Source of the DNA: Desulfobacterales bacterium
Lineage (GTDB): Bacteria; Desulfobacterota; Desulfobacteria; Desulfobacterales; UBA2245
Direction: 5' to 3'
Length of the DNA stretch: 64,000 bases
NCBI GenBank assembly: GCA_040771865.1
Contig: JAXGZF010000004.1
Span: 289,916 to 353,915 of the forward strand
The notes beneath the pieces are model-generated. The model saw only the letters and a list, made by a program, of their open reading frames with translations. It was not told the DNA's origin and did not search any database. The position numbers and the translations under genes are program-made. Positions 17,402-46,925 of this stretch are shown here, piece by piece (the first letter of the stretch is position 1; each line of letters begins with the position of its first letter).

Positions 17402-17509
17402 GACGCTCTCCTTTCTTCAAAAATGGATTAAGATTACCGGCTTTTCAACGAAAGCCATTGGCCCGTGTTTCATCAATTGATCTGGATGAAACCAAATTTG
17501 TATATTTAT

Positions 17510-17534: not shown

Positions 17535-17541
17535 CAACATT

Positions 17542-17931: not shown

Positions 17932-18575
17932 GGGGGATGAAGACTGCAAGCAGGCTGTTTTCGAGACTGCATTTTAACACTCCCGTTATTTTTTCCTTCG
18001 GAGTCTGTTTTTTGAATCACCTTGCGTTCCCGCAGTGGGATGAAACAGCCTGTTTGAATGCCATTATGGTGCACATTGGCGATCACATTTTCAATGAAAA
18101 CCCAACCCCACCCTATTCATGCAAGCATGAAAAGCCCGTTTAACCCCACCCTTCCATTCGGAGAGTCGAAACATTTGTCCGCATCTGTCAGCATCGAATA
18201 CTGATGTATGCTTTCCTGCCGAATAGCATTCCAGAAATACCTTCCAACAACAGACACATCACCCATTCTTTCAAACGGTTCAGAAAAATTTCTGAGTATT
18301 CCGACTCTATTTGCCCAACAGTGAGCCTGATTTCACCGGAACATTCAATGGATGATAATTTCAAGTCATTATTGGTAATTTAGGGTATTTTTAAAACTTT
18401 GCATTGACACGGATGATCATATAAGTTTAAAAAAACACGAATATCGGCATGTATTGATGGCGTGTCCGCTGCTATAGCCTTTCAGCCGAATTGAAAAAAC
18501 AGGCGGCATGTCATCCGCGAATGGGTTTGAACCCGAGACATCTAAACCGAAGATTTTGGTTTGCGGGAGGGAAAA

Positions 18576-25645: not shown

Positions 25646-25766
25646 CGGATTCAATTCATCATATTCAAACCTGCGCCAAAAAGGTGCGAACAAACTTGTC
25701 CATTTTGATGTATTACTTGATCAATTTAATTGAACGGATCACAAAAATTTATTAAGGAGGATGAAA

Positions 25767-27353: not shown

Positions 27354-28450
27354 CGGCCGCCAGTCCCCTTCTTCAGGTCAAAAATATTGTGGTCAAGCGG
27401 GGCGGAATTACTGTTCTGGATATCCCCGACTTTACGCTCAAGCAGGGGGAGGTTCTGTCCCTGCTCGGGCCGAACGGCTCCGGGAAATCCACGCTGCTTC
27501 TGACCTTGTCCAGCCTTTTGAAGCTGCACCAGGGCAAACTGATCTTCAAGGGCCGGGAGATTGACAGCCGCCGGAATGCGCTGGACTATCGACGGCAGAT
27601 CGCCGTCGTATTTCAGGACCCGCTTCTTTTGGATACGACGGTGCTGGACAATGTGGCTTCCGGCCTGAAAATCCGGGGAGTAGAGAATATGAAACGTTTG
27701 CGGATCGCGGAAGAATACCTGGAACGCCTGGGAATTGCCCATCTGGCCAAACGATCCGCATCCAAACTCTCCGGAGGAGAAGCCCAGAGAACCAGTATCG
27801 CCCGGGCCTTTGCGACTCGCCCCACCATCCTTTTTCTCGATGAACCCTTTTCCGCTCTGGATCCGCCCACGCGCGAAGCTTTGATCTCGGATCTCACCCG
27901 CATTCTTCGGGAAACGGACACCACGGCGGTGATTGCCACGCATGATCAGATGGAGGCCCTGCGCCTTTCCAGCCGCATGGCCATTATTCAGCAAGGAAAG
28001 ATCGCTCAGACGGGCTCTGCAGAAGAGGTGATGAATCATCCGGTTAATGAATTTGTCGCCTCCTTTGTCGGAATGGACACGGTCCTGGCCGGCAGGGTCC
28101 GGGAAAACCACGACAAGAACAGAATGATGATTGCCGTCGGCGATCGGGAGATCGAGGCCGTGGGGAATTTCCCTCCGGGAGAGCAGCTCATCTGTTGCAT
28201 TCGTCCCGAGAACGTAACTCTCTCCACGGATTCACCCGAAGAACAGAGCAGCGCTCGAAACAATTTTTCGGGCCGGATTGTGCGCATCGCACCCCACGGA
28301 CTTTTTTACCGCGTTGATCTGGACTGCGGTTTTGAGCTCACTTCTTACATCACCCGTACATCACTGGACAGCCTGGCGCTTCGGGAAGGTATGAAGGTCA
28401 AGGCCTCCTTCAAGGCCACCGCCGTTCATGTGATCCGGAAAACGACATGA
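27350..28450 (+). CDS. tupC: Tungstate ABC transporter ATP-binding protein with C-terminal TOBE-like domain
   Basis: 366-aa ORF with Walker A GPNGSGKST, signature LSGGEAQR and Walker B ILFLDEP. A C-terminal extension of about 120 aa ends ...GMKVKASFKATAVHVI, which is TOBE-like. Confidence 0.85.
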   Translation: MTAASPLLQVKNIVVKRGGITVLDIPDFTLKQGEVLSLLGPNGSGKSTLLLTLSSLLKLHQGKLIFKGREIDSRRNALDYRRQIAVVFQDPLLLDTTVLDNVASGLKIRGVENMKRLRIAEEYLERLGIAHLAKRSASKLSGGEAQRTSIARAFATRPTILFLDEPFSALDPPTREALISDLTRILRETDTTAVIATHDQMEALRLSSRMAIIQQGKIAQTGSAEEVMNHPVNEFVASFVGMDTVLAGRVRENHDKNRMMIAVGDREIEAVGNFPPGEQLICCIRPENVTLSTDSPEEQSSARNNFSGRIVRIAPHGLFYRVDLDCGFELTSYITRTSLDSLALREGMKVKASFKATAVHVIRKTT

Positions 28451-32199: not shown

Positions 32200-33000
32200 A
32201 TGAAATCAAAAAAGTGGGCGTTATATTTTTTGGCAGTGGTATTGCTGGCGCTGACCGTCATAGGGCTGGGCAATTTTGCAGGAAGCAGTGCTGCTGCGGA
32301 AACCGAGCTGCTCGTATTTGCCGCTGCTTCCACCACCGATGCCATCACTGAAATCGGAGACCTGTATGCAGCCCGGAATATAGGTCGCATCAAACCCTCA
32401 TTTGCTTCATCATCCACGCTGGCCAAGCAGATTGCCAGCGGAGCGCCGGCCGATGTATTTCTTTCGGCCAATCCAAAGTGGATGGACTTTCTTGAAGAAA
32501 AAAATTTACTGTTCAAAGAGACTCGATTCGATCTCTTGGGCAACCGGATTGTCCTGATTGCACCCTTGGACAGCATGATGGGCCAGATCGATGTGAAGCC
32601 CGGATTTTCACTGTCTGCATTGCTGGGCAAGGATGGCCGTTTATCCGTGGGTGATCCGGACCATGTGCCGGCCGGCATGTACGGGAAAGAAGCCCTGCAA
32701 AACCTCGGCGTCTGGGATCAGGTCAAGGATCGTCTGGCGCCGATGAAGGATGTTCGAGCGGCCCTGGTGCTGGTGGAACGCGGAGAAGCGCCCCTGGGAC
32801 AGGTTTATGCCACCGATGCCGCTGTTTCCAAGAAAGTGCGCGTGGTGGGCACTTTTCCGGCCGACTGCCACGCACCCATAGTCTATCCTGTGGCTGCGGT
32901 GTCCGGCGGAAAGACTTCAGAGGTAAAACAGTTTATGGATTTTCTGAAATCACCGGAGGCCCGGGCGGTCTTTGAAAAACATGGTTTTGAAGTGCGTTGA
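32200..33000 (+). CDS. modA: Molybdate ABC transporter substrate-binding protein
   Basis: 266-aa ORF with a signal peptide. LLVFAAASTTDAITEI, FASSSTLAKQIASGAPADVFLSAN, VGDPDHVPAGMYGKEAL and YATDA are typical ModA blocks. Confidence 0.9.
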   Translation: MKSKKWALYFLAVVLLALTVIGLGNFAGSSAAAETELLVFAAASTTDAITEIGDLYAARNIGRIKPSFASSSTLAKQIASGAPADVFLSANPKWMDFLEEKNLLFKETRFDLLGNRIVLIAPLDSMMGQIDVKPGFSLSALLGKDGRLSVGDPDHVPAGMYGKEALQNLGVWDQVKDRLAPMKDVRAALVLVERGEAPLGQVYATDAAVSKKVRVVGTFPADCHAPIVYPVAAVSGGKTSEVKQFMDFLKSPEARAVFEKHGFEVR

Positions 33001-33698
33001 TGGATTTTTTTCACCTGACAGAGGTGGAACTGGAAGCCCTGAGGTTGAGCCTGTGGGTGTCCGGGTGGGCCGTGGCCGCCAGTCTGCCCTTTGGCATACT
33101 GGCGGCCTGGGTTCTGGCCCGCCTGCACTTTCCAGGGAAAAGCCTTCTGGACGGTTTGGTGCATCTGCCGCTGGTATTGCCTCCGGTTGTGACTGGATAT
33201 CTGCTGTTGGTGATGCTCGGCCGCAACGGAATCATCGGCGCGCTGCTGTACAAGTATCTGGGCGTTGTTTTGGCTTTTAACTGGAAAGGGGCCGCGTTGG
33301 CCGCCGCCGTCATGTCTTTCCCTCTGATGGTCCGCGCGGTTCGACTATCTCTGGAAAGTGTGGACCCTGGGTTGGAAGCCGCGGCCCGCACGCTTGGGGC
33401 CGGTCCGGTGCGTGTATTTTTTACGGTTACGCTTCCCCTGATGGCGCCGGGAATTATAACCGGCATTATTCTTGCTTTTGCGCGCAGTCTGGGAGAATTC
33501 GGTGCCACCATCACCTTTGCATCCAACATCCGTGGACAGACCCAGACCCTGCCGCTGGCCCTTTACACGCTGACCCAGGTTCCGGACGGCGAGATGGGGG
33601 CCATGCGGCTGTGCATTCTGTCGGTTTTGATCGCCATAGCCGCGCTGATATGCTCTGAAATATTGGCCCGGCGCTTTGACGCCCGAATGAAAGGATGA
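32997..33698 (+). CDS. modB: Molybdate ABC transporter permease
   Basis: 233-aa polytopic protein with the EAA loop LEAAARTLGAGPVRVFFTVTLPL. Its start overlaps the modA stop. Confidence 0.9.
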   Translation: MMDFFHLTEVELEALRLSLWVSGWAVAASLPFGILAAWVLARLHFPGKSLLDGLVHLPLVLPPVVTGYLLLVMLGRNGIIGALLYKYLGVVLAFNWKGAALAAAVMSFPLMVRAVRLSLESVDPGLEAAARTLGAGPVRVFFTVTLPLMAPGIITGIILAFARSLGEFGATITFASNIRGQTQTLPLALYTLTQVPDGEMGAMRLCILSVLIAIAALICSEILARRFDARMKG

Positions 33699-33704
33699 TT
33701 CGCT

Positions 33705-34820
33705 TTGGAGATCAGCGTGAGGCGCAAACAGGGCGTTTTCAGTATAGACGCCTCTTTTCGGGGGGCCGGATCCGGAGTTACGGCTCTGTTCGGGCCCTCG
33801 GGCTCGGGAAAAACCTCGATCGTCAACATGGTGGCCGGATTGATGCGACCCGATGCCGGCCGCATCGCCATCAACGGTCTTTGCCTGTTTGATTCATCCC
33901 GGGGCATCGATCTGCCGCCGGAAAAGCGTCGCATCGGCTATATTTTTCAGGACGGCCGTCTGCTCCCCCATCTTTCGGTGCGTTCCAACCTGACCTACGG
34001 AATGCACCAGACCCCTATCGGCCGGCGTTTAGTGAATTTTGACCAGGTGGTGGATCTTCTCGGCATCGGTCACCTGCTCCATCGAAGACCGGCCAAGCTT
34101 TCCGGCGGTGAGAAACAGCGCGTGGCCATCGGCCGCGCCCTTTTGACCAGCCCGGCCATGCTGCTCATGGATGAACCGCTGGCCTCCCTGGATGGAGCGC
34201 GCAAGGCAGAGGTGCTGCCCTTTATCATGCGGTTGGGCCGCGAGTTCGCCATTCCCATTCTCTACGTCAGTCATGCTCTGGATGAAATACTCAATCTGGC
34301 GACGCACATGGCGATAATGGAAGAAGGCCGCGTTCTGGCTTGCGGAAACATCGAGGATCTTTTGTCCCGCTCGGACCTGCATACCTTTTTCGGAAGAACG
34401 GAAATCGGAACGGTTATTTCAACAGTGGCCGAAAATCCGAAAGATTCCTTCGGCCTGGCCCATCTGCGTTTTGGCGGCAAGATCCTTAAAGTTCAGGGCA
34501 TTCAGGCAGCCCCGGGCGCCCTGGTACGGGTGCGCATTCCGGCCAGTCATGTAGCCATTGCGCTGGAAGCGCCCGAACATACCAGCCTGCAGAACATATT
34601 CCCCGGAACAATTTGCGAGATACTGGATCAGGGCGAACATTTTGTGGAAGTGCGTCTAGATATCGGATGCTCCCTGTGGGCCCGAATCACCCGGCAATCC
34701 TGTGTGAATCTGGATCTGAAGCCCGGTCTGCCCGTTTTTGCATTGATCAAGAGCGTTGCGGTTTCTCTGGGCGCATCCACCAGAATCGGAACACCGGACT
34801 TCCTGACATCCTGTTTATAG
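33705..34820 (+). CDS. modC: Molybdate ABC transporter ATP-binding protein (with C-terminal TOBE/Mop-like domain)
   Basis: 371-aa ORF with a TTG start. Walker A is GPSGSGKTS, the signature is LSGGEKQR and Walker B is MLLMDEP. The C-terminal ...LVRVRIPASHVAIAL... region is TOBE-like. Confidence 0.88.
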   Translation: MEISVRRKQGVFSIDASFRGAGSGVTALFGPSGSGKTSIVNMVAGLMRPDAGRIAINGLCLFDSSRGIDLPPEKRRIGYIFQDGRLLPHLSVRSNLTYGMHQTPIGRRLVNFDQVVDLLGIGHLLHRRPAKLSGGEKQRVAIGRALLTSPAMLLMDEPLASLDGARKAEVLPFIMRLGREFAIPILYVSHALDEILNLATHMAIMEEGRVLACGNIEDLLSRSDLHTFFGRTEIGTVISTVAENPKDSFGLAHLRFGGKILKVQGIQAAPGALVRVRIPASHVAIALEAPEHTSLQNIFPGTICEILDQGEHFVEVRLDIGCSLWARITRQSCVNLDLKPGLPVFALIKSVAVSLGASTRIGTPDFLTSCL

Positions 34821-35111
34821 CCGGGCGTTTGAGAAATATTAAGATTCAAACCTTTCTCGGACGCAATTTGCATTGGATGCAATGCATCCGAATGTATTGA
34901 TCTTCAGCTATCCCTCTCCAATCGATTCCTGATTTCTCGATCCATTTTTTATTATGTTTTTTATTGACATCGAGGGATTGTATGATATTTAACTGTGCCT
35001 TAAATGACATATATCAGGATCGGCATATCATGACTTCATTCAGGCCGCAAATTTGGTTTTGCACCCTGATGAAATGAATCGGCAATAAATGTGTTGCAAA
35101 AGGAGTTTCCA

Positions 35112-36785
35112 ATGTTTAACGGCAATACCCGCATAATTTCGGAAAATCATCAAATCGGTTCGTATTCCTTTGAAGAGTATATGGATCTGGTCAAGTCATT
35201 TCACGGGTATGCTGCACCCGGCGTTATCATTGGAGGCTTCATGGTCGATCTGGCGCTGAAAAATCTTCCGGACGGAGAGTTTTTCGATGCCGTCTGCGAA
35301 ACAACCGCATGCCTGCCGGACGCTATTCAGCTGCTGACGCCCTGCACGTTCGGCAACGGCTGGCTCAAGGTTCTCGACTTCAACCGGTATGCGCTGACGA
35401 TGTACAACAAGGAGAACGGAAAGGGCGTGAGAGTTGCCCTGAGCACTTCGGCGGTTCGCGCCTGGCCCGATATCAACAATTGGTTTTTCAAGCTTAAAAC
35501 CAAGAAGGAACAGGACCCGCAGCGACTGAACGAGGCGATCAAGAATGCAGGCCATAGCATATGCAAGATGGAACAGGTCGAGGTGAATTCCGAGGTTCTG
35601 AAGCGCAAATCCAGAGGAAACGTCGCCGTTTGCGCCATATGTGGGGAATCCTTTCGAACGAACGGGGGAACCGTCTGCCGTGCCTGTCACGGGGAGATAT
35701 ATTACCGTATTTTCAGCGGCGCCGACCAGACCCAGGCGCCGCTCGAAATGCCCGCGCTCAAATCCACACCCGTTGAACAGGCCGTGGGGCTCGCCGCACT
35801 TCATGACATGACGGAAATCATTCCCGGCAAGTTGAAGAAACCGGCTTTTAAACGGGGACAGGAGCTTTCCATCGGAGACGTCTGCCACCTGCAGCGGATG
35901 GGGAAAAATCATGTTTATCTGAGTCAGGAAAATCCGGTCGGAGATGAATGGGTCAACGAGGATCAGGCGGCAATAGCCTTTGCCGCGGCCATGACAGGGC
36001 CTGGCGTTGCCGTCGGCGGCAAGCCCAGCGAAGGCAAGGTGAATCTGGAAGCGACCTTGGACGGGCTTCTGGCGGTTGAGGTCGAGCAGTTGAAACGGTT
36101 TAATCTGGTTCCGGAAGTCATTTGCGGATGCCTGAAAAACTTTACTCAGGTCTCCCGGGGCCAGAAATTTGCGGCCACCCGGGCCATTCCTTTGTTCATG
36201 CGGCGGGAAAATTATACCCGGGCTATAGACGTTCTGGCTGAAAAGCCGTTGTTTAAAGTCCTTCCAATGCGCAAGGCGTCCGTCGGCCTGCTGGTGACCG
36301 GCGAGGAAGTGGCCAAGGGGCTGATTGAAGACAGATTCATTCCGATTCTGGAAAAGAAGCTCAAACGGTATGACTGCCGGATTGTCGGAAAGGAAATCGT
36401 ACCTGACGATCGCGGAAAAATTTCATCCGCCGTAACTCGCATGATTCAGTCCGGTGCCGATATGGTGATCGCAACAGCGGGTATGTCGGTGGATCCGGAT
36501 GATTGCACGCGTCAGGGAATTATCGATGCCGGCGCCACCCAGATTCTCTACGGCGCTCCGATTATTCCCGGCGCCATGATTATGCTGGCTCAGATCAACT
36601 CGGTTCAGGTTTTTGGCGTTCCGGCATGCGCCCTGTATTTCGATGTCACCAGCTTCGATCTCCTGTTGCCCCGGCTTCTGGCGGGCGTTCCTGTCACAAG
36701 GGAGGATCTGGCGCAGATGGGACACGGGTCTTTCTGCCAGGAATGCAAGGTCTGCGTCTTTCCCCGTTGTCCGGTCGGCAGATAA
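35112..36785 (+). CDS. Fusion protein: FmdE-like domain with zinc ribbon + MoeA/MoCF-type molybdopterin-binding domain
   Basis: The N-terminal FHGYAAPGVIIGGFMVDLAL...CLPDAIQLLTPCTFGNGWL is FmdE-like. It is followed by CAICGESF...CRAC. The C-terminal LLVTGEEV...IVPDD...IATAGMSVDPDD is the MoCF-biosynthesis fold signature. The start at 35112 has an AAGGAG RBS. Confidence 0.68.
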   Translation: MFNGNTRIISENHQIGSYSFEEYMDLVKSFHGYAAPGVIIGGFMVDLALKNLPDGEFFDAVCETTACLPDAIQLLTPCTFGNGWLKVLDFNRYALTMYNKENGKGVRVALSTSAVRAWPDINNWFFKLKTKKEQDPQRLNEAIKNAGHSICKMEQVEVNSEVLKRKSRGNVAVCAICGESFRTNGGTVCRACHGEIYYRIFSGADQTQAPLEMPALKSTPVEQAVGLAALHDMTEIIPGKLKKPAFKRGQELSIGDVCHLQRMGKNHVYLSQENPVGDEWVNEDQAAIAFAAAMTGPGVAVGGKPSEGKVNLEATLDGLLAVEVEQLKRFNLVPEVICGCLKNFTQVSRGQKFAATRAIPLFMRRENYTRAIDVLAEKPLFKVLPMRKASVGLLVTGEEVAKGLIEDRFIPILEKKLKRYDCRIVGKEIVPDDRGKISSAVTRMIQSGADMVIATAGMSVDPDDCTRQGIIDAGATQILYGAPIIPGAMIMLAQINSVQVFGVPACALYFDVTSFDLLLPRLLAGVPVTREDLAQMGHGSFCQECKVCVFPRCPVGR

Positions 36786-36875
36786 CCGGTGGCCGGGTTG
36801 CGTTTGGTTTTATTGGCATGGAAGAAAATGTTCAGGCTATATTTGTGCCTGAGCGGTTATTAAGGAGTGAATTTA

Positions 36876-37295
36876 ATGCAATCGATCAGGCCTGTTTTAC
36901 GGCTGCACCTGTGGCTGGAAACCGATGACGGACTGGTGTTTGGTTTCGGCCGCGCCAAGCTGTTGCAGAATGTTGAGGAATGCGGTTCCCTGAAAAAAGC
37001 TGCCGAGGCCCTGGGGATGTCCTACCGGGCGGCCTGGGGAAAGATAAAACAGTCCGAGGCGGTTCTGGGAAGCCAGTTAATTCAAAAGACCGGGAGCAAC
37101 CGCAGCGGGTATGAGCTGACGCCTTTTGGCAAGGGCATCACTGAAAAATTCATGTCCTGGTTTGACAGGGTTGAAAAGAATGCACTGCAGGAAGCGGCCG
37201 CTATTTTCCCTTGGATGTCCGAACCCTATCAGGAAGAGCGTGTTTCGGAAGAAAGCGCCGCGGCTTCAGGCGGTGATGAAAAGTTTTCCGACTGA
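36876..37295 (+). CDS. ModE N-terminal-domain-only winged-helix regulator (no Mop/TOBE sensor domain), paralog 1
   Basis: LRLHLWLETDDGLVFGFGRAKLLQNVEECGSLKKAAEALGMSYRAAWGKIKQSE follows the ModE/LysR-type HTH pattern (GSI..AA..LGMSYR.AW). The ORF ends after about 140 aa, with no di-Mop domain. Confidence 0.7.
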   Translation: MQSIRPVLRLHLWLETDDGLVFGFGRAKLLQNVEECGSLKKAAEALGMSYRAAWGKIKQSEAVLGSQLIQKTGSNRSGYELTPFGKGITEKFMSWFDRVEKNALQEAAAIFPWMSEPYQEERVSEESAAASGGDEKFSD

Positions 37296-37508: not shown

Positions 37509-38252
37509 TTATCCCAACAGGTTTCTGACAGTCCGCTTCAGGGGCGCCGTCATCTTGGAGATGGCGGCCATTCGAGAGATGCCCGCCGGACCCTGAGCTA
37601 CCAGATTCTTGTGATAGAATTCCGGTTTGTCCGTGATCAGGTAAATGACCCGGACCTCTTCCGCGTCGATCAACTGGGCTTCGGGAAATTCTTTCTTTAC
37701 AATGGCGAGCCGTTTTTGCGCCTCTTCAAGCATCTTCTCCCGGTCTCCAAAAAGGATCGCCCTGGTGATGCAGACCTTTGCGCACATGGGAATAAGCCCG
37801 GCAGCCACCCGCTCGAAGCACATGTCGCATTTGTTAATGACTCCGGTGGCGTCGTCGCGTCTCGGAATATCATAGGGGCATGCGCTTTTCATCTCGTCGA
37901 AGGCTTCCTTGGGCAATTCCTTGATCTTTTCGGTATAAACCACCGCGCCTGTGGCTTCGTCGATGATGACAGCGCCCTGCACATATTGGTTGGCAATATC
38001 CTTGCAAGGCGGCTGGAGGCAGTGGCGGCACTGGTCGCTCAAGAAATTCCACGTGACGCGATCGCCGATTTTATGCTCCTGAAAACGAACGATCTTGTAG
38101 TTCCTGGGATTCAGATCGGGCGGATTCTGATGGCTTCCCCAACCCAGCTGTGTTGTTTTGTTAGCCTGGAAGCCCTGCCATTCCTTACAGGCGACCTGGC
38201 ATCCACGGCACGCCGTGCACCGGGTTACATCAATGAAAAATGATTTTGACAT
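37509..38252 (-). CDS. fdhB: Formate dehydrogenase iron-sulfur (beta) subunit, copy 1
   Basis: 247-aa ORF with multiple ferredoxin-type Cys clusters (CTACRGCQVACKEW, CRHCLQPPC, CPYDIP, CDMCFERV...PMCAKVC). It lies immediately downstream of fdhA. Confidence 0.9.
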   Translation of the reverse strand: MSKSFFIDVTRCTACRGCQVACKEWQGFQANKTTQLGWGSHQNPPDLNPRNYKIVRFQEHKIGDRVTWNFLSDQCRHCLQPPCKDIANQYVQGAVIIDEATGAVVYTEKIKELPKEAFDEMKSACPYDIPRRDDATGVINKCDMCFERVAAGLIPMCAKVCITRAILFGDREKMLEEAQKRLAIVKKEFPEAQLIDAEEVRVIYLITDKPEFYHKNLVAQGPAGISRMAAISKMTAPLKRTVRNLLG

Positions 38253-38312
38253 ATTGTTCCTCCCTTTTTAATAAGCGGGCGAGCATGGGTCCGTCCGCCC
38301 GCTTTTTCATTT

Positions 38313-41300
38313 TTATGACAGTTCGGTCACCTTGTCCGCCTTCCGGATATTGACGAGGCAGGCCTTTGATTCTTGAATGGTGGTATTCGGATCGCCCGCC
38401 GAGATACACAGACGGTTGGTTGAATCGCCACACCCCGGAGTTGTCCAGCCGAAGCAGAACGGCATTCCGATCAGGTGGACGGTCTTGCCCTGAATCTTGA
38501 ACGGAGTGATGCGCATGGTGACCATGGCCGCAGCTTCAACCCGGCCTCTCGCGCTTTCGATAATCACGCCGTCGCCGTTCTTGATCCCCTTTTCCTTGGC
38601 CAGCTCCTCGCTCATCTCCACATAAAGCATGGGCTCGGCTTCAAGCAGGGGGGGAGTGTTTCTCGTTTCACTGCCGCTGCACCAGTGCTCTGTCAGGCTG
38701 TAGGTGGTCAGAACAATCGGATACTTGGGATCTCCCGGAACGGCAAGCTTGTCCATATCGCTTTGGATGACCTTTGCGCACGGGTTGTTCAGTTGATTTG
38801 AGAACAGATGCTTCTTAACAGGGGTTTCAATCGGCTCATAATGCTCCGGAAACGGACCGTCAACAAGTCCGGGGCCGAAAAGGCGTCCAAATCCCTCCGT
38901 CTGCATGATAAACGGATGTGTGCTTTTTCCTGATGAGACCGGCGGCGCTCCGCCATCGGGGACATCGCCGATCCATTTGCTTCCGTCCCATTCGATAACG
39001 GCACGAGAAGGGTCCCACGGTTTCCCGTTTAAATCAACCGATGCCCGGTTGTACAGAATTCTGCGGTTGACCGGCCAGCACCATGAAAATTTTGGAAAGA
39101 GTCCCAATTTGGCTTCCCTCTCGTTCTGCGTCAGATCGCGGTTTTTCGTCTGGTTGCCCTGTTCCGTAAAACTGCCGGCATATATCCAGTTTGGACAAGC
39201 CGTTGAACCGTCATCTGCGAATTCGGTAAAACTGGACACCTGGGTTCCCTTTTTGGGGCCGCTTACATAATAGCCGTTGCATTTTTTCGCAATTAATTCA
39301 GCATCGTATCTGTCATAAAAATCCATGTTCACAATAGGTCCAGGGAATGCACCGCCCTTTTCCTTGTACAGTCTCTTCACTTCGTTCATAATATCGATCA
39401 TGGTCTGTCCCATGGCTCTCGAGTCGCCCCTGGGTTTCGTGGCCTGATAGTGCCACATTATCCATCTTCCGCTGTTGGCGACAGAGCCTTCTTTCTCAAC
39501 GCGGTGGCTTGACGGGAAAAGGAAAACCTCTGTTTTGATATCTTTCGGATTAATGCCCGGACCATGCCAGAAATCCGTTGTTTCGTTGTGAAAGATGTCC
39601 GCAATAAACACCCAGTCGAGATTCCCCATGGCTTTCCTTATCTTGTGGATGTTTGGAAGGGACTGCGCGGGATTGGAGCCGAAAATTGAACCACCTTTCA
39701 TCCCGCCTTTATACATTCTGTCAAAATAAAACATAAAGGAATTGTCGCCCGCGTCCCAGCTTGCAGCCGCATCGAGTTTCGGAAGCCAGCTGTATCTAAA
39801 ATCGTTTTCCCTGGTTGCCGCGTCGCCGTACCAGGCTTTCAGCAGGCTGACCACGTATTTCGGGCGGTTCTGCCACCAGTTGACGCTTGCAGGATCTTTG
39901 GAGATCGGAGTAAACTTTTTATTGTAATCCGCAAGCGTAGGAAGATCGGCACGGGGCATCGGGTGATAGCCCGGAAGCTTATCGTACAGTATGGCATAGT
40001 CTGTTGCTCCCTGCACGTTGGGTTCGCCTCTCATGGCGTTGACGCCGCCGCCGGCGATGCCGATGTTGCCGAGCAGAAGCTGGACGATGCCGCCCGTGCG
40101 GATGTACTGAACGCCTACGGTATGCTGGGTCCAGCCAAGGGCATACAGGATGGTTCCGGCTTTGTCGGGTTTTCCAGTTGCTGTGTATAATTCATAGACT
40201 TTATTAATTTTTTCAACAGGTACGCCTGTAACCTCGGATACCTTTTTGATGTCGTATCTGGAATAATGCTTCTTCAGCAGCTGGAAAACACATCGGGGAT
40301 CCTGAAGGGTTTTATCCTTTTTCGGAATGCCGTTGGCGTCGTACTCGAATTTCCAGCTCGATTTGTCATACAGTTTCTTCTTTGCATCATATCCCGAGAA
40401 CAATCCGTCGTTGAATTTAAATTTATCGCTGACGATAAATGCCGCGTTCGTATAATTGACTACATAATCTTTAAAGTATTTGCCGTTGTCGATTATATAT
40501 TTGATCATGCCACCCACAAAAGCAATGTCGGTGCCCGAACGAATCGGCACATGGAGGTCCGCTCTCGCAGAGGTCCTTGAAAATTTGGGGTCGACGTGAA
40601 TGATTTTTGCGCCTCTTTCTTCCTTTGCCCGCATTATCCATCGAAAAACCATGGGATGATGCTCGGCCGCGTTGCTGCCGATGATTAAACAGCAATCCGT
40701 ATTCTTTACATCAATATAGTGATTTGTCATCGCACCGCGGCCGAAACATTGCGCAAGTGCCGGGACGGTTGAACTGTGGCACACGCGCGCCTGATGGTCC
40801 ATATTTACAATGCCAAGACAAGCCACCGCCTGACGTGTAACGGATAGTTCTTCATTGGTCATTTGCGATGAACCCATGTGGAACATTTCATCCACGCGGT
40901 TTACGACCTGACCTGCCGCATTCTTTTCTTTAAAATATTTGTCTCTTGTATCTTTAATGCGCCTGGCGACTTCCTTAACCATCCAGTCGTAATCCCTCTC
41001 CACCCATTGGTCGCTGTTCGGCGCGCGGTACAAAGGCTTGAGCAATCTGTTATCGCTGTTGATCTGGGACAGCATTGCCGCGCCTTTTGCGCACAGGGCG
41101 CCTTCGCTGACCGGATAGTCGGCGTCGCCTTCCGTACTGACAACCTTGCCGTTTCTGACATGGGCTATATACTGGCAAATGACCGAACAATAAGGACAGC
41201 TTGTGAGGACTTCCGTAGCGCCCCTGATCTTCAGCTCCTTTGCATAGGCTGTCGCGGGCCCCAGACCGAAACCCACCTGGCTCAGGGCGATTGCTGCCGC

Positions 41301-41345
41301 CCCGGCGCCCGTTACCTTCATAAAACCCCGCCGTGTAACTTCCAT
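38313..41345 (-). CDS. fdhA: Periplasmic formate dehydrogenase catalytic (alpha) subunit, Cys-type, copy 1
   Basis: Has a Tat signal (MEVTRRGFMKVTGAGAAAIAL) and an N-terminal 4Fe-4S motif (CPYCSVIC...LCAKG). The bis-MGD family blocks are present. The active-site stretch is HQARVCHSSTV, with TGC (Cys) where copy 2 has TGA. The start at 41345 is preceded by GAAGGAGG. Confidence 0.92.
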   Translation of the reverse strand: MEVTRRGFMKVTGAGAAAIALSQVGFGLGPATAYAKELKIRGATEVLTSCPYCSVICQYIAHVRNGKVVSTEGDADYPVSEGALCAKGAAMLSQINSDNRLLKPLYRAPNSDQWVERDYDWMVKEVARRIKDTRDKYFKEKNAAGQVVNRVDEMFHMGSSQMTNEELSVTRQAVACLGIVNMDHQARVCHSSTVPALAQCFGRGAMTNHYIDVKNTDCCLIIGSNAAEHHPMVFRWIMRAKEERGAKIIHVDPKFSRTSARADLHVPIRSGTDIAFVGGMIKYIIDNGKYFKDYVVNYTNAAFIVSDKFKFNDGLFSGYDAKKKLYDKSSWKFEYDANGIPKKDKTLQDPRCVFQLLKKHYSRYDIKKVSEVTGVPVEKINKVYELYTATGKPDKAGTILYALGWTQHTVGVQYIRTGGIVQLLLGNIGIAGGGVNAMRGEPNVQGATDYAILYDKLPGYHPMPRADLPTLADYNKKFTPISKDPASVNWWQNRPKYVVSLLKAWYGDAATRENDFRYSWLPKLDAAASWDAGDNSFMFYFDRMYKGGMKGGSIFGSNPAQSLPNIHKIRKAMGNLDWVFIADIFHNETTDFWHGPGINPKDIKTEVFLFPSSHRVEKEGSVANSGRWIMWHYQATKPRGDSRAMGQTMIDIMNEVKRLYKEKGGAFPGPIVNMDFYDRYDAELIAKKCNGYYVSGPKKGTQVSSFTEFADDGSTACPNWIYAGSFTEQGNQTKNRDLTQNEREAKLGLFPKFSWCWPVNRRILYNRASVDLNGKPWDPSRAVIEWDGSKWIGDVPDGGAPPVSSGKSTHPFIMQTEGFGRLFGPGLVDGPFPEHYEPIETPVKKHLFSNQLNNPCAKVIQSDMDKLAVPGDPKYPIVLTTYSLTEHWCSGSETRNTPPLLEAEPMLYVEMSEELAKEKGIKNGDGVIIESARGRVEAAAMVTMRITPFKIQGKTVHLIGMPFCFGWTTPGCGDSTNRLCISAGDPNTTIQESKACLVNIRKADKVTELS

Positions 41346-41574
41346 TTGTTGCCTCCTTCGATTTGTTTTCATGATTTATTGCCTGCAACCTTTTCAGCGC
41401 TTGTTCGGAGATCACGTTGCCGCTTCCATTCGATGCCGGCTGAAATTTCCTCGCAAGCCCTGATATGTAAATTTCGTCGAGCCATTTATATAATCAATTA
41501 TTCAAATTGAAGGAATAAATGACATAATGCAGTACGGTTGTCAATAGATTTTATAGAAAAATGCTATAATATTA

Positions 41575-41594
41575 ATATGTTATGGCAAACATAT
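41575..41594. promoter_or_regulatory. Near-palindrome ATATGTTA-N4-AAACATAT upstream of fdhA copy 1 (candidate operator)
   Basis: Read from the sequence. It occupies the same position and has the same 8-4-8 architecture as the perfect palindrome upstream of fdhA copy 2. It lies within an otherwise partly diverged leader/promoter region. Confidence 0.35.
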
Positions 41595-41757
41595 AAAAAA
41601 GGGCATCCGGCGTGGTGGGAAAAATATTACGCGGAAATTTCCCGGCGAACAGGAAACGATCCTTGCGGGGGTTTTACAGAAGAAAGCGGTTTATTGAAAA
41701 TAGGGCGAAGATTGTTGTTGGTGAGATCGCTCTTTTACGGCCGCTTGCCGCAAAATT

Positions 41758-41786
41758 ATAAGCTCGCCTTTGAACGGCGAGCTTAT
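41758..41786 (-). terminator. Hairpin downstream of fdhE (possible terminator)
   Basis: ATAAGCTCGCC-(7 nt)-GGCGAGCTTAT forms a perfect 11-bp stem about 70 nt after the fdhE stop. On the minus strand it is followed by AATTTTG, a weak U-tract. Confidence 0.4.
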
Positions 41787-41855
41787 GAAATTCAAATCGA
41801 ATGGGGTGGGTTGATCCGGCTCTTACAGAAGATCCGATCCGGTTCGTATTTGGTA

Positions 41856-42734
41856 TTAAAACCCAACCTCTATACCGCTTTTAAATCCGGTTTCCGCTGC
41901 CTTGATATCCAGATGCGGAGTGGAAATATATTCCAGGGGCGGATAAATTTCCCGGTCTGTTTTCCGGGTGTCCACGGTCTTGATGTATTTTCCGCACTTG
42001 TCGCAGACGTCCAGACGGTGCTCTTCCTCGCTCTCAATTTCGAAATAGTGAAGGGCGTTGTGGTCCGTATTGTCGCAGAAGGGGCAGAATATTCTTTTCG
42101 TGGCCCATTTGTGCCAGCAGAAGCTGCAGCAGAAGAACCGCTTCCCGTTTTCCTCGAATATCGAAATCGCCGGGAGCGACCCGCAGATCGGGCAGTATCC
42201 CTTTTCCCAGGGCTGGTTCTTGTCCAGATAACTTGAAAGCTGCTTTGCGCACCGGGCCAGCGAGGGTTTCACGCTGCTGTAGACAATGAAGCCCAGCGTT
42301 TTTTTATCGATTTTAAGCTCGTCTGAGACTTTTTGAAAAAAAGTTTCGTCCGATTTCAGAAACGCGGCAAAAAGCGCGTTTAAATCCAGTTTCCCGGCTT
42401 CCACGGCTTCGGCAATCTTTTTGGCGGATTCAGACATTGCTCCGGACGCCTGCTGAACGATTTCGCACAGATTTTTGAACAGCGCCGCGGCTGCCCTGGA
42501 ATCGATTGCAAACTGCGAAATGTCGATGAGCGGAAATCCTTCTTTTACTTTTAGAGCCAGGGCGTCTGCGGAAATTTCCAAGGGTTCGATACGGGTCTGA
42601 TTTGCCGAATCCTCCTGAGCGATAAAAATCTTTTCATAGAAATCGATCAGGTCGGAATAATTCGGCTTCAGCTTTCGGATTTCTTCCAGCCCCTTTAAGA
42701 TACGGCCGGAGGATGACTCTGTGCTTTCGGGCAT
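41856..42734 (-). CDS. fdhE: Formate dehydrogenase accessory protein FdhE
   Basis: Has four CxxC pairs in the FdhE arrangement (CPICGS, CSFCWHKW, CPFCDN, CDKCGKY). The start at 42734 (MPESTESSSG) has the RBS GGAG. Confidence 0.88.
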   Translation of the reverse strand: MPESTESSSGRILKGLEEIRKLKPNYSDLIDFYEKIFIAQEDSANQTRIEPLEISADALALKVKEGFPLIDISQFAIDSRAAAALFKNLCEIVQQASGAMSESAKKIAEAVEAGKLDLNALFAAFLKSDETFFQKVSDELKIDKKTLGFIVYSSVKPSLARCAKQLSSYLDKNQPWEKGYCPICGSLPAISIFEENGKRFFCCSFCWHKWATKRIFCPFCDNTDHNALHYFEIESEEEHRLDVCDKCGKYIKTVDTRKTDREIYPPLEYISTPHLDIKAAETGFKSGIEVGF

Positions 42735-42763
42735 AAAACACTCCAATCTCGTTGATGCATGTG

Positions 42764-42797
42764 AAAAAGGGAGGGAGATTCACATCTCCCTCCCTTT
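42764..42797 (-). terminator. Terminator-like hairpin after fdhB copy 2, identical to the copy-1 hairpin, only ~30 nt upstream of the fdhE start
   Basis: The same GGGAGGGAGAT-TCAC-ATCTCCCTCCC stem occurs at 42769-42794, with TTTTT on the minus strand. Confidence 0.6.
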
Positions 42798-42818
42798 CTG
42801 ATGACTGAGCCTATCGGG

Positions 42819-43562
42819 TTATCCCAATAGATTTCTGACGGACCGCTTCAGGGGTGCCGTCAGTTTGGCGATGGCGGCCATCCGTGAGATGCCCGCCGGC
42901 CCCTGCGCTACCAGATTCTTGTGATAGAATTCCGGTTTGTCCGTGATCAGGTAAATGACCCGGACCTCTTCCGCGTCGATCAACTGGGCTTCGGGATAGT
43001 CTTTCTTGACAACGGCGAGCCGTTTCTTCGCCTCATCCATCATCTTCTCCCGGTCTCCAAAGGTGATCGCCGAGGTGGGGCAGGACTTTGCACACATGGG
43101 AATGAGTCCGGCGGCCACCCGCTCGTAGCACATGTCGCATTTGTTAATGACTCCGGTGGCGTCGTCGCGTCTCGGAATATCATAGGGGCATGCGCTTCTC
43201 ATCTCGTCGAACGCTTCCTTGGGCAGCTGCTTGGCTTTGTCGGTATAAATTACCGCACCCGTGGCATCGTCGAAGACGACGGCGCCCTGCATATAGCCGT
43301 CGGCCATGTCCTTGCAGGGCGGCTGGAGGCAGTGGCGGCACTGGTCGCTCATGAAGTTCCACGTAACCTTGTCGCCGATTTTATGCTCCTGAAAACGAAC
43401 GATCTTAAAGTTTTTGGGATTCAGATCGGGCGGATTCTGATGGCTTCCCCAGCCGATCTGCGTGGTCTTGTTTGCAGCGAATCCCTGCCATTCCTTGCAG
43501 GCGACCTGGCATCCCCGGCACGCCGTGCATCGTGTTACATCGATCAAAAATGTCTTTGACAT
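42819..43562 (-). CDS. fdhB: Formate dehydrogenase iron-sulfur (beta) subunit, copy 2
   Basis: 247-aa ORF, collinear with copy 1 and identical to it at most positions. The same Cys clusters are present. Confidence 0.9.
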   Translation of the reverse strand: MSKTFLIDVTRCTACRGCQVACKEWQGFAANKTTQIGWGSHQNPPDLNPKNFKIVRFQEHKIGDKVTWNFMSDQCRHCLQPPCKDMADGYMQGAVVFDDATGAVIYTDKAKQLPKEAFDEMRSACPYDIPRRDDATGVINKCDMCYERVAAGLIPMCAKSCPTSAITFGDREKMMDEAKKRLAVVKKDYPEAQLIDAEEVRVIYLITDKPEFYHKNLVAQGPAGISRMAAIAKLTAPLKRSVRNLLG

Positions 43563-43621
43563 GTCGTTTCTCCCTTTTTAATAAACGGGCGGACAGGAAT
43601 CGCCCGCCCGTTTTTCGCATC

Positions 43622-46600
43622 TTATGACAGTTCGGTCAACTTGTCCGCCTTTTTGATGTTGACAAGGCAGGCTTTGTATTCAGGAATGGAGGTGTTCGGA
43701 TCGCCCGCCGAGACGCACAGACGGTTGGTGGCGTCGCCCACTCCGGGAGTAGTCCAGCCAAAGGCAAAGGGCATTCCGATTTCATGAACGGTCTTGCCCT
43801 GAATCTTGAACGGGGTCATGCGCATAGTGACCATGGCCACGGCCTCGACCCTTCCTCTGGCGCTTTCGACAATCACGCCGTCGCCGTTCTTGATTCCCTT
43901 TTCCTTGGCCAGTTCCTCGCTCATCTCTACGTAAAGCTGGGGTTCGGCTTCCAGCAAAGAGGGCACGTTTCTCGTCTCCCCGCCGCCGCACCAGTGTTCC
44001 GTCAGGCTGTAGGTGGTTAGAACGATGGGATACTTCGAATCGCCCGGGACTGCCCGCTTGTCGAGTTCGCTTTCAATCACCTTGGCGCAGGGGTTGTTGA
44101 GCTGTTTGGAGAAGGGGTGCTTCTTGACCGGGGTTTCGATCGGTTCGTAATGCTCGGAGAACGGCCCTTCCTCGCGTCCGGGGCCGTAAAGCGCGCCGTG
44201 CCCTTCCTTCTGCATGATGAAGGGGTATTTGCCCTGTCCGGTTGCCATCGGAGGCCAGCCGCCGTCAGGCACGTCGCCGATCCACTTGTTGCCATCCCAC
44301 TCGATGACAACTCGGGTCGGATCCCAGGGCTTGCCGTTCAGGTCGACCGAAGCCCGGTTGTACAGGACTCTCCGGTTGACCGGCCAGCACCACGAATAGC
44401 CTGGGAAGAGGCCGATTTTGGCCTGCAGGTCGGTCTGGGACAGGCCGCGATTCTTCATCTTGTTGCCCGCCTCTTCAGTATAGCTTCCGGTGTAGAGCCA
44501 GTTCCGGGAGCTGGTCGATCCGTCGTCGGCCAGATTGGCGAAGCTGGGCACAAGGGACCCTGCCTTGTATGTCTTGTCTTTAATGGTGGTGTCTTTGAGG
44601 AAGAAACCGTTGCATTCTTTCGCGATTTGTTCCGCATCGAAATGGGAGGGCCAGTTCAGGTTCACAATCGGTTCCGGAAATACGCCGCCTTCTTCCCTGT
44701 AAAGCTTTCGCACCGCGTTCATGATTTCCACCATGGTCTCGCCCATGGATTTGGATTCGCCTGCCGGTTCGGCGGCCTTGTAATGCCACAATACCCAGCG
44801 TCCGCTGTTGCTGATGCTGCCTTCCTTTTCCACGCGGTGGCAGGCTGGGAACAGGAACACTTCGGTTTTGATGTCCTTGGGGTTGACCCCGGGCCGGTGC
44901 CAGAAATCGGTGGTCTCATTTTGATGGATTTCGGAGATGTACAGCCAGTCCAGGTTGTCCATCGCTTTCCGGACCTTGGTTGTGTTGGGTATGCTCTGGG
45001 CCGGGTTGTGCGCCCAGACCGAGCCGCCCTTGATTTTCCCCTTGTACATCCGGTCGAATATATGCAGGTGTGAATAGTCGCCCTGCACGAGACCTTTTGG
45101 CGTATCGCCCTTCGGAACCCAGCTATAGGCGAAATCGTTTTCCTTTGTCGCTGCGTCGCCGAACCAGGATTTCAGCAGGCTGACCACGTATTTCGGGCGG
45201 TTCTGCCACCAGTTGGCGCTCAGGGGATCCTTGGTGACCGGTGTGTTGGCCTTGTTGTAATCGGCCAGGGTGGGCCAGTGTGACCGGGGTACCGAATGAT
45301 AGCCGGGCAGGATATGATAGAGAATGCAGTGGTCGGTGGAACCCTGAACGTTGGGCTCGCCGCGCAGCGCGTTGATGCCGCCGCCGGCAACGCCGATGTT
45401 GCCCAGCAGCAGCTGAACGATCGCGCTGGTCCGGATGTTCTGAACGCCGACCGTATGCTGGGTCCATCCCAGGGCGTACATGACCGTTCCGGCCTTGTTC
45501 TTTTGTCCGGTCGCGGCATACGTTTCATACACCTTGAGCAGATTTTTTTCTGAAACGCCGGTGATCGCCGAAACATTCTTTAAATCGTACCGGGAGTAGT
45601 GTTTCTTCAGAAGCTGGAAAACGCATCTTTTATTCTTGAGAGTCTTGTCTCTTTTCGGAACTCCGTTGGCGTCCACATCAAACGCCCAGGCTTTTTTGTC
45701 GTAGGTGCTCAAATTCTTGTCAAAGCCGGAAAACAGGCCGTCTTTGAAACCGAATTTTTCGCCGACGATAAACGATGCGTTGGTGTATTCCGTTACGTAT
45801 TCCTTGAAGTATTTTTCTTTGTCGATAATGTACTTGATCATGCCGCCCAGAAACGCGATATCCGTTCCGGAGCGAAGGGGCACGTGAAAATCGGCCCGTG
45901 CCGAGGTTCTGGAGAATTTGGGGTCCACATGGATGATGGTCGCGCCTCTTTCCTCCCTGGCCTTCATAACCCATTTGAAACAGATGGGGTGATGCTCGGC
46001 GGCATTGCTGCCCATAATCAAGGCACAGTCCGTGTTTTTAATATCAATCCAGTGATTGGTCATCGCGCCGCGTCCGAACGACTCTCCCAGAGCCGCAACA
46101 GTTGCGCTGTGTCAGATACGGGCCTGATGATCCATGTGGACGACGCCCATGGCTCGCAGCGCCTGATGAACGATGGCGCATTCCTCGTTGCTCATCTGGG
46201 AGGAGCCCAGGTGAAAAATTTCCTCCACCCGGTTGACGACCTGTCCGCTTTCATTGGTGGCTTTAAAGTTTTTGTCGCGGGTGTCCTTGATCCGCCGCGC
46301 CAAATTTTCCAGCATCCACTCCCAGCTCTTTTCTTCCCACTTGTCGCTGTACGGAGCGCGGTACTTGGGCTTCAGGACTCTGTGGTGGCTGTTGATCATG
46401 GAATTCATGGTCGCGCCTTTTGCGCACAGGGCGCCTTCGCTGACCGGATAGCCCGGATCGCCTTCGGTGCTCACAACCTTGCCGTCCCTCACATGCGCAA
46501 TGTAATGGCAGCAGACTGAACAGAACGGGCAGATCGAGATGACTTCCTTGGCGCCCTTGATCTTCAGCTCCTTTGCATAGGCTTTCGCGGGTCCCAGACC

Positions 46601-46678
46601 GAAACCCAGCTGGCTCAGGGCGATTGTCGCCGCCCCGGCGCCGGTTACCTTCATAAAAACTCGCCGTGTTACATCCAT
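43622..46678 (-). CDS. fdhA: Periplasmic formate dehydrogenase catalytic (alpha) subunit, selenocysteine-type, copy 2 (in-frame UGA at 46114..46112)
   Basis: Track ORFs 46112..46678 and 43622..46063 are in the same frame, separated only by TGA. Reading through gives ...HMDHQARI-U-HSATVAALGESFGRGAMTNHW. This aligns with HQARVCHSSTV...GRGAMTNHY of copy 1 and with the known Sec position of FDH-type enzymes. A Tat signal (MDVTRRVFMKV) is present and the RBS is AAGGAGG. Confidence 0.9.
46078..46111 (-). promoter_or_regulatory. Candidate bacterial SECIS hairpin immediately 3' of the UGA codon
   Basis: The mRNA after the UGA reads CACAGCGCAACUGUUGCGGCUCUGGGAGAGUCGUUCGG. GCGGCUCU-GGG-AGAGUCGU can form a stem of about 8 bp (including G-U pairs) with a G-rich apical loop, starting 15 nt after the UGA. 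I folded this by eye only, and an alternative smaller hairpin (CGCAA-CUG-UUGCG) exists. Confidence 0.4.
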
Positions 46679-46925
46679 TAGTTGCCTCCTTCGATTGTCT
46701 TACTGATGATTTGTAACCTGCAACCTTTTCAGCGCTTTTACCAGGATCACGCAGCTTCCGTTTGTTGCCGGAGAAGGTTTTCCTCCTGAATAGACTTGCC
46801 GCAAGCTCTGATATTAAAAAGCGTCGAGTTATAATTTACGGAATCGATCATTCCAGTTTCTATCTTATTTGATATAGAGGGATCGAATTGTCAAGGCTTT
46901 TTGAAATAAAAATGTAATAATTTTA

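Follow-up and report, generated by a model that had tools for sequence, protein, structure and literature searches.

Does the second formate dehydrogenase alpha subunit gene (fdhA2) of this Desulfobacterales bacterium encode one selenoprotein, or is it interrupted by a stop codon? In the window, the whole stretch of 64,000 nucleotides that was analysed, the locus appeared as a 188-aa open reading frame (ORF; 46112–46678) and an 813-aa ORF (43622–46063). The two ORFs were in a common frame, and the second started at an internal ATG 16 codons past a TGA. The preliminary description of this DNA had held that the TGA at 46114..46112 alone splits the gene, and its coordinates, the frame and the 1018 sense codons were confirmed. 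Very probably, fdhA2 is intact and encodes the catalytic subunit of a soluble W/Mo-bis-MGD enzyme of the FdhAB type, which is exported through the Tat pathway and in which UGA189 is read as selenocysteine (Sec) by means of a SelB-bound hairpin. The features of the locus are listed in Table 1.

Table 1. Features of the fdhA2 locus and neighbouring formate dehydrogenase (FDH) genes; positions are those of the window.
Feature	Position	Strand	Basis or remarks
fdhA2, periplasmic formate dehydrogenase alpha (catalytic) subunit	43622..46678	-	1018 codons, one internal TGA in single-frame translation
Shine-Dalgarno sequence AAGGAGG, 6 nt 5' of ATG 46678	46685..46691	-	sequence inspection
Predicted N-terminal Tat export signal, MDVTRRVFMKV...AYA	46574..46678	-	read from translation; aligns with D. 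vulgaris FdhA signal peptide
UGA, predicted Sec codon, residue 189, followed by conserved His	46112..46114	-	aligned to copy-1 Cys and to Sec192 of PDB 8cm4
Candidate SECIS hairpin	46078..46096	-	5' arm GCGGCUCU 46096-46089, loop GGG 46088-46086, 3' arm AGAGUCGU 46085-46078
Codons +6 to +14 (GCG GCU CUG GGA GAG UCG UUC GGA CGC), nucleotide-level constraint	46070..46096	-	third-position entropy, 45 Sec-type genes
fdhB2, iron-sulfur beta subunit, 247 aa	42819..43562	-	TIGR01582 FDH-beta, E=1e-40
fdhE, FDH accessory protein	41856..42746	-	NF002925 E=1e-19, TIGR01562 E=9e-17; below curated cut-offs
fdhA1, Cys-type paralog, TGC at 40781-40779	38313..41372	-	~72% identical to fdhA2; without hairpin
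fdhB1, beta subunit paired with fdhA1	37509..38252	-	TIGR01582, E=5e-38

The single-frame translation of fdhA2 was a full-length member of the NCBIfam family TIGR01553, scoring 1355.3 bits against a curated cut-off of 814.2, with residues 2–1010 aligned to positions 1–1009 of the 1009 in the profile. Its N-terminal part contained the Tat motif TRRVFMK and a 4Fe-4S domain (C50-x2-C53-x3-C57...C85). PF04879 is recorded for 188-aa fragments homologous to the fdhA2 N-terminus, and the precomputed Pfam record of such a homologous fragment includes TAT_signal, marked faint. Matches in the PDB were D. vulgaris FdhAB, D. gigas W-FDH and E. coli FdnG (1KQF), with E-values from 0 to 5e-280. The UGA had been said to lie where copy 1 has Cys and FDH enzymes have Sec, and the alignments to copy 1 and to PDB 8cm4 agree with this: the stretch DHQARI-U-HSATV aligned with Sec192-His193 of 8cm4, and the family motif HQAR(I/V)-U/C-H was present. 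In the W-FdhAB of D. vulgaris, the W atom is bound by the Se of Sec192 (PMC9774666). FdhA is a classic bacterial selenoprotein, and selenoproteins are abundant in Deltaproteobacteria (PMC1794560, PMC12013277).

Homologous loci were found in Desulfobacterota, Nitrospirota, Bacillota and others; the best match to fdhA2 in the genome-contig search, among the matches listed, was 70% identical. The Sec/Cys column was occupied by TGA or TGC, and by nothing else, in 79/79 homologues among the matches listed. TGA is not reassigned in this organism, since it was the stop codon of 16 of the 37 other confident genes in the window, and we discarded that explanation. Alternatively, the TGA could be an inactivating nonsense mutation in fdhA2, with the Cys-type fdhA1 doing the work. 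Such a pseudogene would be in keeping with the gene callers' breaking of fdhA2 into pieces of 188 and 813 aa, with the intact Cys paralog only 2 kb away and with the fact that no sel genes were seen within the 64-kb window. Yet this very codon was also TGA in 71 of the 79 homologues among the matches listed (TGC in the other 8), and the same TGA was retained in three relatives at 96%, 86% and 81% identity. In fdhA2 it was followed by 829 codons without a stop or frameshift, for which dN/dS values of 0.06, 0.18 and 0.13 against three relatives indicated purifying selection; values for the N-terminal part were similar. The hairpin discussed below was conserved as well. Inactivation is therefore extremely unlikely. 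The earlier view of the gene as one 1018-residue selenoprotein and no pseudogene was thus supported, both by the end-to-end match to TIGR01553 and by the low dN/dS (0.06–0.18) past the UGA.

The close relatives showed the same ORF split (188 + 806–813 aa), and the searched protein collection contained hundreds of fragment pairs of 188 aa and ~810 aa like those of fdhA2. The presence of both ORFs and their conservation in relatives would also be expected if the UGA terminated translation and the enzyme were assembled from a 188-aa Fe-S domain and an 813-aa protein initiated at ATG 46063. Against such a split gene, the internal ATG lies within the invariant motif FGRGAMTNH, and no Shine-Dalgarno sequence comparable to the strong AAGGAGG site at ATG 46678 was found 5' of it. 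The 16 codons from the UGA to the ATG (HSATVAALGESFGRGA) would be lost, including that of the catalytic His beside Sec. Moreover, the start of the downstream ORF shifted among relatives (774–820 aa), as is expected of a gene-caller artefact. We regard two separate proteins as next to impossible, and propose that the annotation show a single selenoprotein of 1018 residues, with codon 189 entered as a translation exception, in place of a pseudogene or a pair of ORFs.

Insertion of Sec would depend on the sequence past the UGA. As the preliminary description had claimed, a stem with a G-rich loop begins 15 nt past the UGA: the hairpin GCGGCUCU-GGG-AGAGUCGU at 46096..46078, with an 8-bp stem and a 3-nt loop, spans 15–33 nt past the codon. 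As is expected of a bacterial SECIS element, it is a stem-loop in the coding sequence directly 3' of the UGA. In bSECISearch, the distance from UGA to loop is 16–37 nt, the loop has 3–14 nt and G is found in its first two positions. The GGG loop, 23 nt past the UGA, lies within these limits, in line with the claim of roughly the geometry required by bacterial SelB. GG formed the first two loop bases in 46/46 type-A sequences (the window included) among the matches listed, and the third base varied.

The hairpin was predicted by RNAfold, with −9.1 kcal/mol for the element alone and pair probabilities of 0.63–0.996 in a 210-nt context. Its MFE showed no excess stability over dinucleotide shuffles (z-score 0.16), and among synonymous recodings that preserve the peptide, 23.5% folded at least as well (p = 0.235). 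An uninterrupted stem of at least 8 bp was present in 5.4% of these recodings; with a loop beginning with G as a further requirement, the share was 0.5%. Sec-type and Cys-type genes were not discriminated by MFE (p = 0.10), and some Cys-type genes had an 8-bp hairpin in another register. Folding energy was uninformative here, owing to these hairpins of Cys-type genes and to the general tendency of GC-rich coding sequence to fold. The folding check suggested earlier thus gave the expected hairpin but not a stability above that of shuffled or recoded controls, and since these controls were equally stable, RNAfold alone does not discriminate. By thermodynamics alone the hairpin is not above chance; by comparison with relatives it is.

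Among the matches listed, another 45 Sec-type genes, belonging to several phyla, had a stem sequence identical to that of fdhA2. The loop in these 45 genes was GGC, GGG or GGU, its third base being the sole variable position of the hairpin. Third-position entropy over 45 independent Sec-type genes was 0 bits at codons +6, +7, +8, +10 and +11, which encode Ala, Ala, Leu, Glu and Ser in the stem. It was 0.15 bits at codon +9 and 0.65–0.80 bits at +12 to +14, compared with 1.2–1.8 bits at degenerate flanking codons of Sec-type genes. In eight Cys-type genes, the same codons had 0.95–1.75 bits. The conservation thus exceeded what the protein needs, as expected of a SECIS, and was kept in Sec forms but relaxed in Cys forms.

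A covariance model trained with the window left out gave 84.6 bits for the site (E=2e-19). Over the 64 kb, its second match was the Cys paralog (30.7 bits), in which the hairpin segment was skipped, and all other matches were below 9 bits. The stem changes seen, one one-sided (U-A to U-G) and one both-sided (G-U to C-G), kept the pairing. With six stem pairs out of eight constant, there was almost no covariation with which to separate pairing from plain sequence conservation; the observed covariation score was reached by 61 of 500 shuffles, the stem being too invariant to inform. A 3-bp lower stem (GUU/GAC) was also considered and found to be unsupported, being paired in only 77% of cells. Taken as a comparison of sequences, these data support the prediction that the UGA of fdhA2 encodes Sec and is served by a SECIS hairpin.

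The UGA might also be read through as Cys or Trp by near-cognate suppression in a host that has lost the Sec machinery, the hairpin being a fossil. In favour of this possibility, selA, selB and selD were not among the 47 ORFs scanned in the 64-kb window, and selC was not found, there being no tRNA gene in the window. Fossil SECIS remnants have been described (PMC1794560), and one homologue (L018) had TGC followed by an intact hairpin. However, the lineages of the FdhA family that abandoned Sec switched to TGC (eight cases among the matches listed). In contrast, close relatives of fdhA2 (dS 0.18–0.88) all kept both TGA and hairpin with zero stem changes, which argues for ongoing selection on the element. 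Read-through without Sec therefore seems very unlikely, and selA, selB, selC and selD are presumably encoded in the genome. Of the same-frame ORF pairs across a TGA in the window, one further selenoprotein candidate, 16960–17931, was translated and rejected; it does not read as one protein.

Directly downstream, fdhA2 is adjoined by fdhB2 and fdhE, both with clear E-values though under the equivalog cut-offs; fdhB2 remained under the curated cut-off of TIGR01582 because the C-terminal end of the profile was unmatched. Genes for tungstate (tupABC-like) and molybdate (modABC) transporters and a MoCF-domain gene were also nearby. One of the FdhA paralogs converted from Sec to Cys is fdhA1: its architecture is that of fdhA2, and TGC stands in place of the Sec codon. 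The hairpin has been lost from fdhA1, whose columns matching it folded at −0.9 kcal/mol. Unlike fdhA1, fdhA2 has kept its Sec codon as well as the hairpin. Cys forms were scattered among predominantly Sec forms in the FdhA tree, a distribution previously described for the family and attributed to conversion of Sec to Cys (Zhang et al. 2006, PMC1794560). The Cys paralog adjoining fdhA2, together with the uptake genes for both tungstate and molybdate, suggests isoenzymes for different trace-element supply.

We hypothesize that, as the ribosome nears the UGA, the in-gene hairpin GCGGCUCU-GGG-AGAGUCGU would be bound by SelB carrying Sec-tRNA(Sec). SelB, competing with release factor 2, would bring the Sec-tRNA(Sec) to the UGA, after which translation would proceed across the remaining 829 codons. 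Selenium would be incorporated at residue 189, making Sec189 the metal-ligating residue of the enzyme, with W or Mo as the metal. The nearby tungstate/molybdate transporter and MoCF-domain genes are consistent with the predicted formate/CO2 activity and W/Mo-bis-MGD cofactor. If fdhA2 is read in this way, the organism decodes Sec and requires selenium for this enzyme. FdhAB-type enzymes are of applied interest in CO2 reduction. fdhA2 is a routine selenoprotein of the best-known bacterial selenoprotein family, and these findings will not surprise a specialist.

At the gathering threshold, no Rfam model matched in the window or in 10 homologous FdhA loci with three hairpin types. The closest comparison is the SECIS of E. 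coli FdnG/FdoG (SECIS_3, RF01989), which belongs to the same protein family as fdhA2 and has its UGA at the same codon and its hairpin in the homologous coding stretch. The model aligned to the window over its full 59 positions, but the score of 28.1 bits was below its gathering threshold (63 bits), and many of its consensus pairs were non-canonical in the window. The apical loop GUC of SECIS_3 starts 19 nt past the UGA and the GGG loop of fdhA2 23 nt past it; the stem registers therefore differ. In the SECIS of the Moorella thermoacetica / E. coli fdhF type, for which SelB–RNA complexes have been solved, a short hairpin with a GGUCU loop lies just 3' of the UGA. The hairpin of fdhA2 shares with this type its position just past the UGA and an apical loop with G first. 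Among the matches listed, 18 homologues (Neobacillus, Desulfuromonadales and others) had GCC GGU CUG GCA, folding into GUUGCC-GGUCU-GGCAGC. Unlike this type, fdhA2 and the 45 genes use GCG GCU CUG G(C/G/U)A GAG UCG, which forms an 8-bp stem with a 3-nt, GG-first loop 4–5 nt farther downstream. This hairpin is shifted in register relative to the E. coli/Moorella GGUCU class and is captured by no Rfam model. It is conceivable, if rather doubtful, that GCGGCUCU-GGN-AGAGUCGU represents a distinct, uncatalogued class of bacterial SECIS in the FdhA of Desulfobacterota, Nitrospirota and allied phyla. Were this true, its invariance across phyla amid saturated synonymous sites would point either to unusually rigid SelB–RNA recognition or to horizontal transfer that has carried fdhA and its SECIS along together.

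At the protein level, the W-FdhAB of D. vulgaris Hildenborough (6SDR, 8CM4) and the W-FDH of D. gigas (1H0H) resemble fdhA2 in alpha subunit length and domain order. The D. vulgaris enzyme aligned with residues 1–1011 (E=0), and its PDB sequence reads HQARIXHS, where X is Sec. The Tat signal and the position of the Sec-His dyad (HQARIUHS) are common to fdhA2 and both enzymes, as is a small soluble FdhB partner; the fdhA2 operon has no gene for a membrane or cytochrome subunit. Unlike these two enzymes, fdhA2 comes from another lineage, the Desulfobacterales, and stands in tandem with a Cys-type paralog.

Translation of fdhA2, the Sec-type formate dehydrogenase alpha subunit gene, in a single frame gave 1018 sense codons and one internal stop, a TGA at codon 189. 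The preliminary description had proposed that the 188-aa and 813-aa ORFs share one frame and are split only by this codon, which proved correct. The minus-strand DNA around it reads GAT CAT CAG GCC CGT ATC TGA CAC AGC GCA ACT GTT GCG GCT CTG GGA GAG TCG TTC GGA CGC GGC GCG ATG ACC AAT CAC TGG. The 813-aa ORF is just the portion of fdhA2 that starts at the first ATG 3' of the TGA. The 16 codons between the TGA and that ATG (HSATVAALGESFGRGA) are open and fall in the family's most conserved motif. A strong Shine-Dalgarno sequence (AAGGAGG) was located upstream of the ATG at 46678, and no comparable one was seen ahead of the internal ATG. Compared with three close relatives, dN/dS was 0.06, 0.18 and 0.13 over the 829 codons 3' of the UGA, comparable to the values for the N-terminal 188 codons (0.11, 0.30 and 0.13), which indicates that translation extends past the UGA. 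As originally suggested, fdhA2 should be recorded as a single selenoprotein gene.

Features of the fdh locus and its surroundings (window positions)
Feature	Position	Strand	Remark
fdhA2	43622-46678	-	Sec-type
fdhA2 in-frame TGA	46114..46112	-	sequence read
188-aa ORF	46112-46678	-	fdhA2 N-terminal piece; ORF list
813-aa ORF	43622-46063	-	fdhA2 C-terminal piece; ORF list
Terminator-like hairpin	43586-43610		CGGGCGGGCGATTCCTGTCCGCCCG TTTATT
fdhB (fdhB2)	42819-43562	-	directly downstream of fdhA2
fdhE	41856-42746	-	downstream of fdhA2, with fdhB
fdhA1	38313-41372	-	Cys-type, paired with fdhB1
Tandem fdh sets	37509-46678	-	fdhA2-fdhB2-fdhE (Sec-type), fdhA1-fdhB1 (Cys-type)
ModE-like regulator	36867-37295		
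FmdE + MoCF-biosynthesis fusion gene	35091-36785		
tupA-tupA-tupB-ATPase and modABC	24791-28450 and 32200-37295 (joint span)		tungstate-type ABC transporter (two tupA-like genes) and molybdate transporter, near fdh operons
TonB-dependent receptor	18561-20585	+	

The read-through product (U written as C) matched NCBIfam TIGR01553, formate dehydrogenase-N subunit alpha, end-to-end with 1355 bits (cut-off 814). It was also matched by the solved enzymes D. vulgaris FdhAB (residues 1-1011, E=0), D. gigas W-FDH (E=0) and E. coli FdnG (E=5e-280). Its N-terminus contains a twin-arginine motif (TRRVFMK) and an Fe-S cysteine motif, as read from the translation. The UGA aligned to the X (Sec) of HQARIXHS in PDB 8cm4, confirming that it occupies the Sec position of characterised formate dehydrogenases. 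In D. vulgaris FdhAB, the Se of Sec192 ligates tungsten (PMC9774666). The paralog fdhA1, approximately 72% identical to fdhA2, has Cys at this position, as had been noted (DHQARV-C-HSSTV vs DHQARI-U-HSATV).

A genome scan with one genome per species recovered at least 80 loci encoding relatives. Among the matches listed, the 79 FdhA-type sites (including two in the window) had TGA (71) or TGC (8) at the UGA column and no other codon. Four close relatives retrieved as DNA (96%, 86%, 81% and 77% identical) all had TGA here and the same downstream sequence. In the protein search, scores of matches were partial sequences, 774-820 aa long and spanning about 80% of the query; they represent Sec-type genes that gene callers had truncated at the UGA. 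The 188-aa N-terminal fragment of fdhA2 belonged to a cluster of 20 such fragments. In the 77%-identical relative (L087:9291-12325), the 188-aa and 774-aa pieces were in different frames, 143 nt apart, which may reflect an indel in the assembly or real disruption of this copy. A global reassignment of TGA was rejected, since 16 of the 37 confident genes in the window end in TGA. The TonB-dependent receptor showed weak matches, far below cut-off, to NCBIfam models of selenocysteine-containing TonB receptors (CU, PCPU, FCYXU and PUIUD motif types); neither this gene nor the sequence just upstream of it showed an in-frame TGA.

RNAfold predicted the hairpin GCGGCUCU-GGG-AGAGUCGU, starting 15 nt 3' of the UGA, with −9.1 kcal/mol when folded alone and inner pair probabilities of 0.94-0.996 in a 210-nt context. 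The equivalent 19 nt of fdhA1 reached only −0.9 kcal/mol. The expected hairpin was thus predicted, but its stability was indistinguishable from chance against dinucleotide shuffles (z-score 0.16). Among synonymous recodings of the same peptide, 23.5% folded as well as the hairpin region and 5.4% contained a stem of at least 8 bp. The MFE did not differ significantly between Sec-type and Cys-type homologs among the matches listed (p=0.10).

The decisive evidence for the hairpin is comparative. Among the matches listed, the Sec-type homologs had three sequence types 3' of the UGA: type A, GCG GCT CTG G(C/G/T)A GAG TCG (46 genes including the window; Desulfobacterota, Nitrospirota and others); type B, GCC GGT CTG GCA (18 genes), folding as GUUGCC-GGUCU-GGCAGC with a GGUCU loop; and type C, GCC AGT TTG GCG (7 genes; AGUUU region). 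The three are mutually exclusive ways of forming a hairpin from one coding stretch, codons +5 to +11 counted from the Sec codon, in a single protein family (L001-L080). With the window left aside, the 45 type-A genes among these matches had a third-position entropy of 0 bits at codons +6, +7, +8, +10 and +11 (Ala, Ala, Leu, Glu, Ser) and 0.15 bits at codon +9, compared with 1.2-1.8 bits in degenerate codons on either side and 0.95-1.75 bits at the hairpin codons of the eight Cys-type genes. This low-entropy block coincides with the predicted stem-loop. Loop positions 1-2 were always GG in the listed type-A genes, in line with the G-rich apical loop first described; the third was C in 37, G in 6 and U in 1, and G in the window and 4/4 close relatives. 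The window hairpin has the stem sequence common to the other 45 genes, the third loop base being its sole departure from the commonest form. Two stem changes were seen, both retaining pairing (U-A to U-G in L034, G-U to C-G in L080). Since 6/8 stem pairs never varied among the listed type-A genes, covariation is formally uninformative. Trained on the 45 sequences, with the window left out, a covariance model found the hairpin site with 84.6 bits (E=2e-19). The second match in the 64 kb was the homologous Cys-paralog site (30.7 bits, hairpin segment skipped), and all remaining matches were below 9 bits. Together with the codon counts and hairpin conservation, this supports the proposal that the UGA is a Sec codon followed by a SECIS hairpin.

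In a neighbour-joining tree, the eight Cys forms among the matches listed fell in about seven separate places amid Sec forms. One Cys-type gene, in a Candidatus Desulfaltia MAG (L018:498), has TGC followed by an intact type-A sequence (GCG GCT CTG GCA GAG TCG), an apparent fossil SECIS that would point to a recent Sec-to-Cys conversion. Remnant SECIS elements in FdhA were described by Zhang et al. 2006 (PMC1794560). No selA, selB, selD or tRNA genes were found in the 64-kb window; we infer the presence of the Sec machinery in the source genome from the TGA and hairpin maintained in the lineage and from the literature, which ranks Deltaproteobacteria first in the use of Sec (PMC1794560, PMC12013277).

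The Cys-type fdhA1-fdhB1 pair comes after fdhE. In the 96%-identical relative (L084), the Cys pair is absent and fdhE is directly followed by the ModE-like and FmdE/MoCF genes, and a further relative (L086) has two tandem Sec-type fdhAB-fdhE sets instead. The isoenzyme content of the locus therefore differs between close relatives. The tungstate and molybdate uptake, ModE-like and FmdE/MoCF genes beside the fdh operons suggest that the two isoenzymes are controlled in a metal-dependent way. In the 59 nt that separate the stop codon of fdhA2 from the start of fdhB2 there is a GC-rich hairpin with a T-run after it, which resembles a terminator on both strands yet lies inside a presumed single operon.

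The evidence supports fdhA2 as an ordinary, unannotated representative of the best-known family of bacterial selenoproteins. Mildly non-routine are the tandem pairing of a Sec-type with a Cys-type isoenzyme next to uptake systems for both tungstate and molybdate, and the nucleotide invariance of the type-A hairpin across phyla together with its absence from Rfam. At Rfam gathering thresholds, no model matched the window or ten homologous loci covering all three hairpin types. In E-value mode, SECIS_3 (RF01989), in whose consensus the enterobacterial FdnG sequence is recognisable, aligned full-length to the window with 28.1 bits, compared with a gathering score of 63. Many consensus pairs were non-canonical in the window, and the loop GUC of SECIS_3 begins 19 nt after the UGA, whereas the window loop begins 23 nt after it. 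The window element lies outside the SECIS_3 family, with its stem in a different register, but it occupies the homologous coding stretch and would probably work in a SECIS-like manner.
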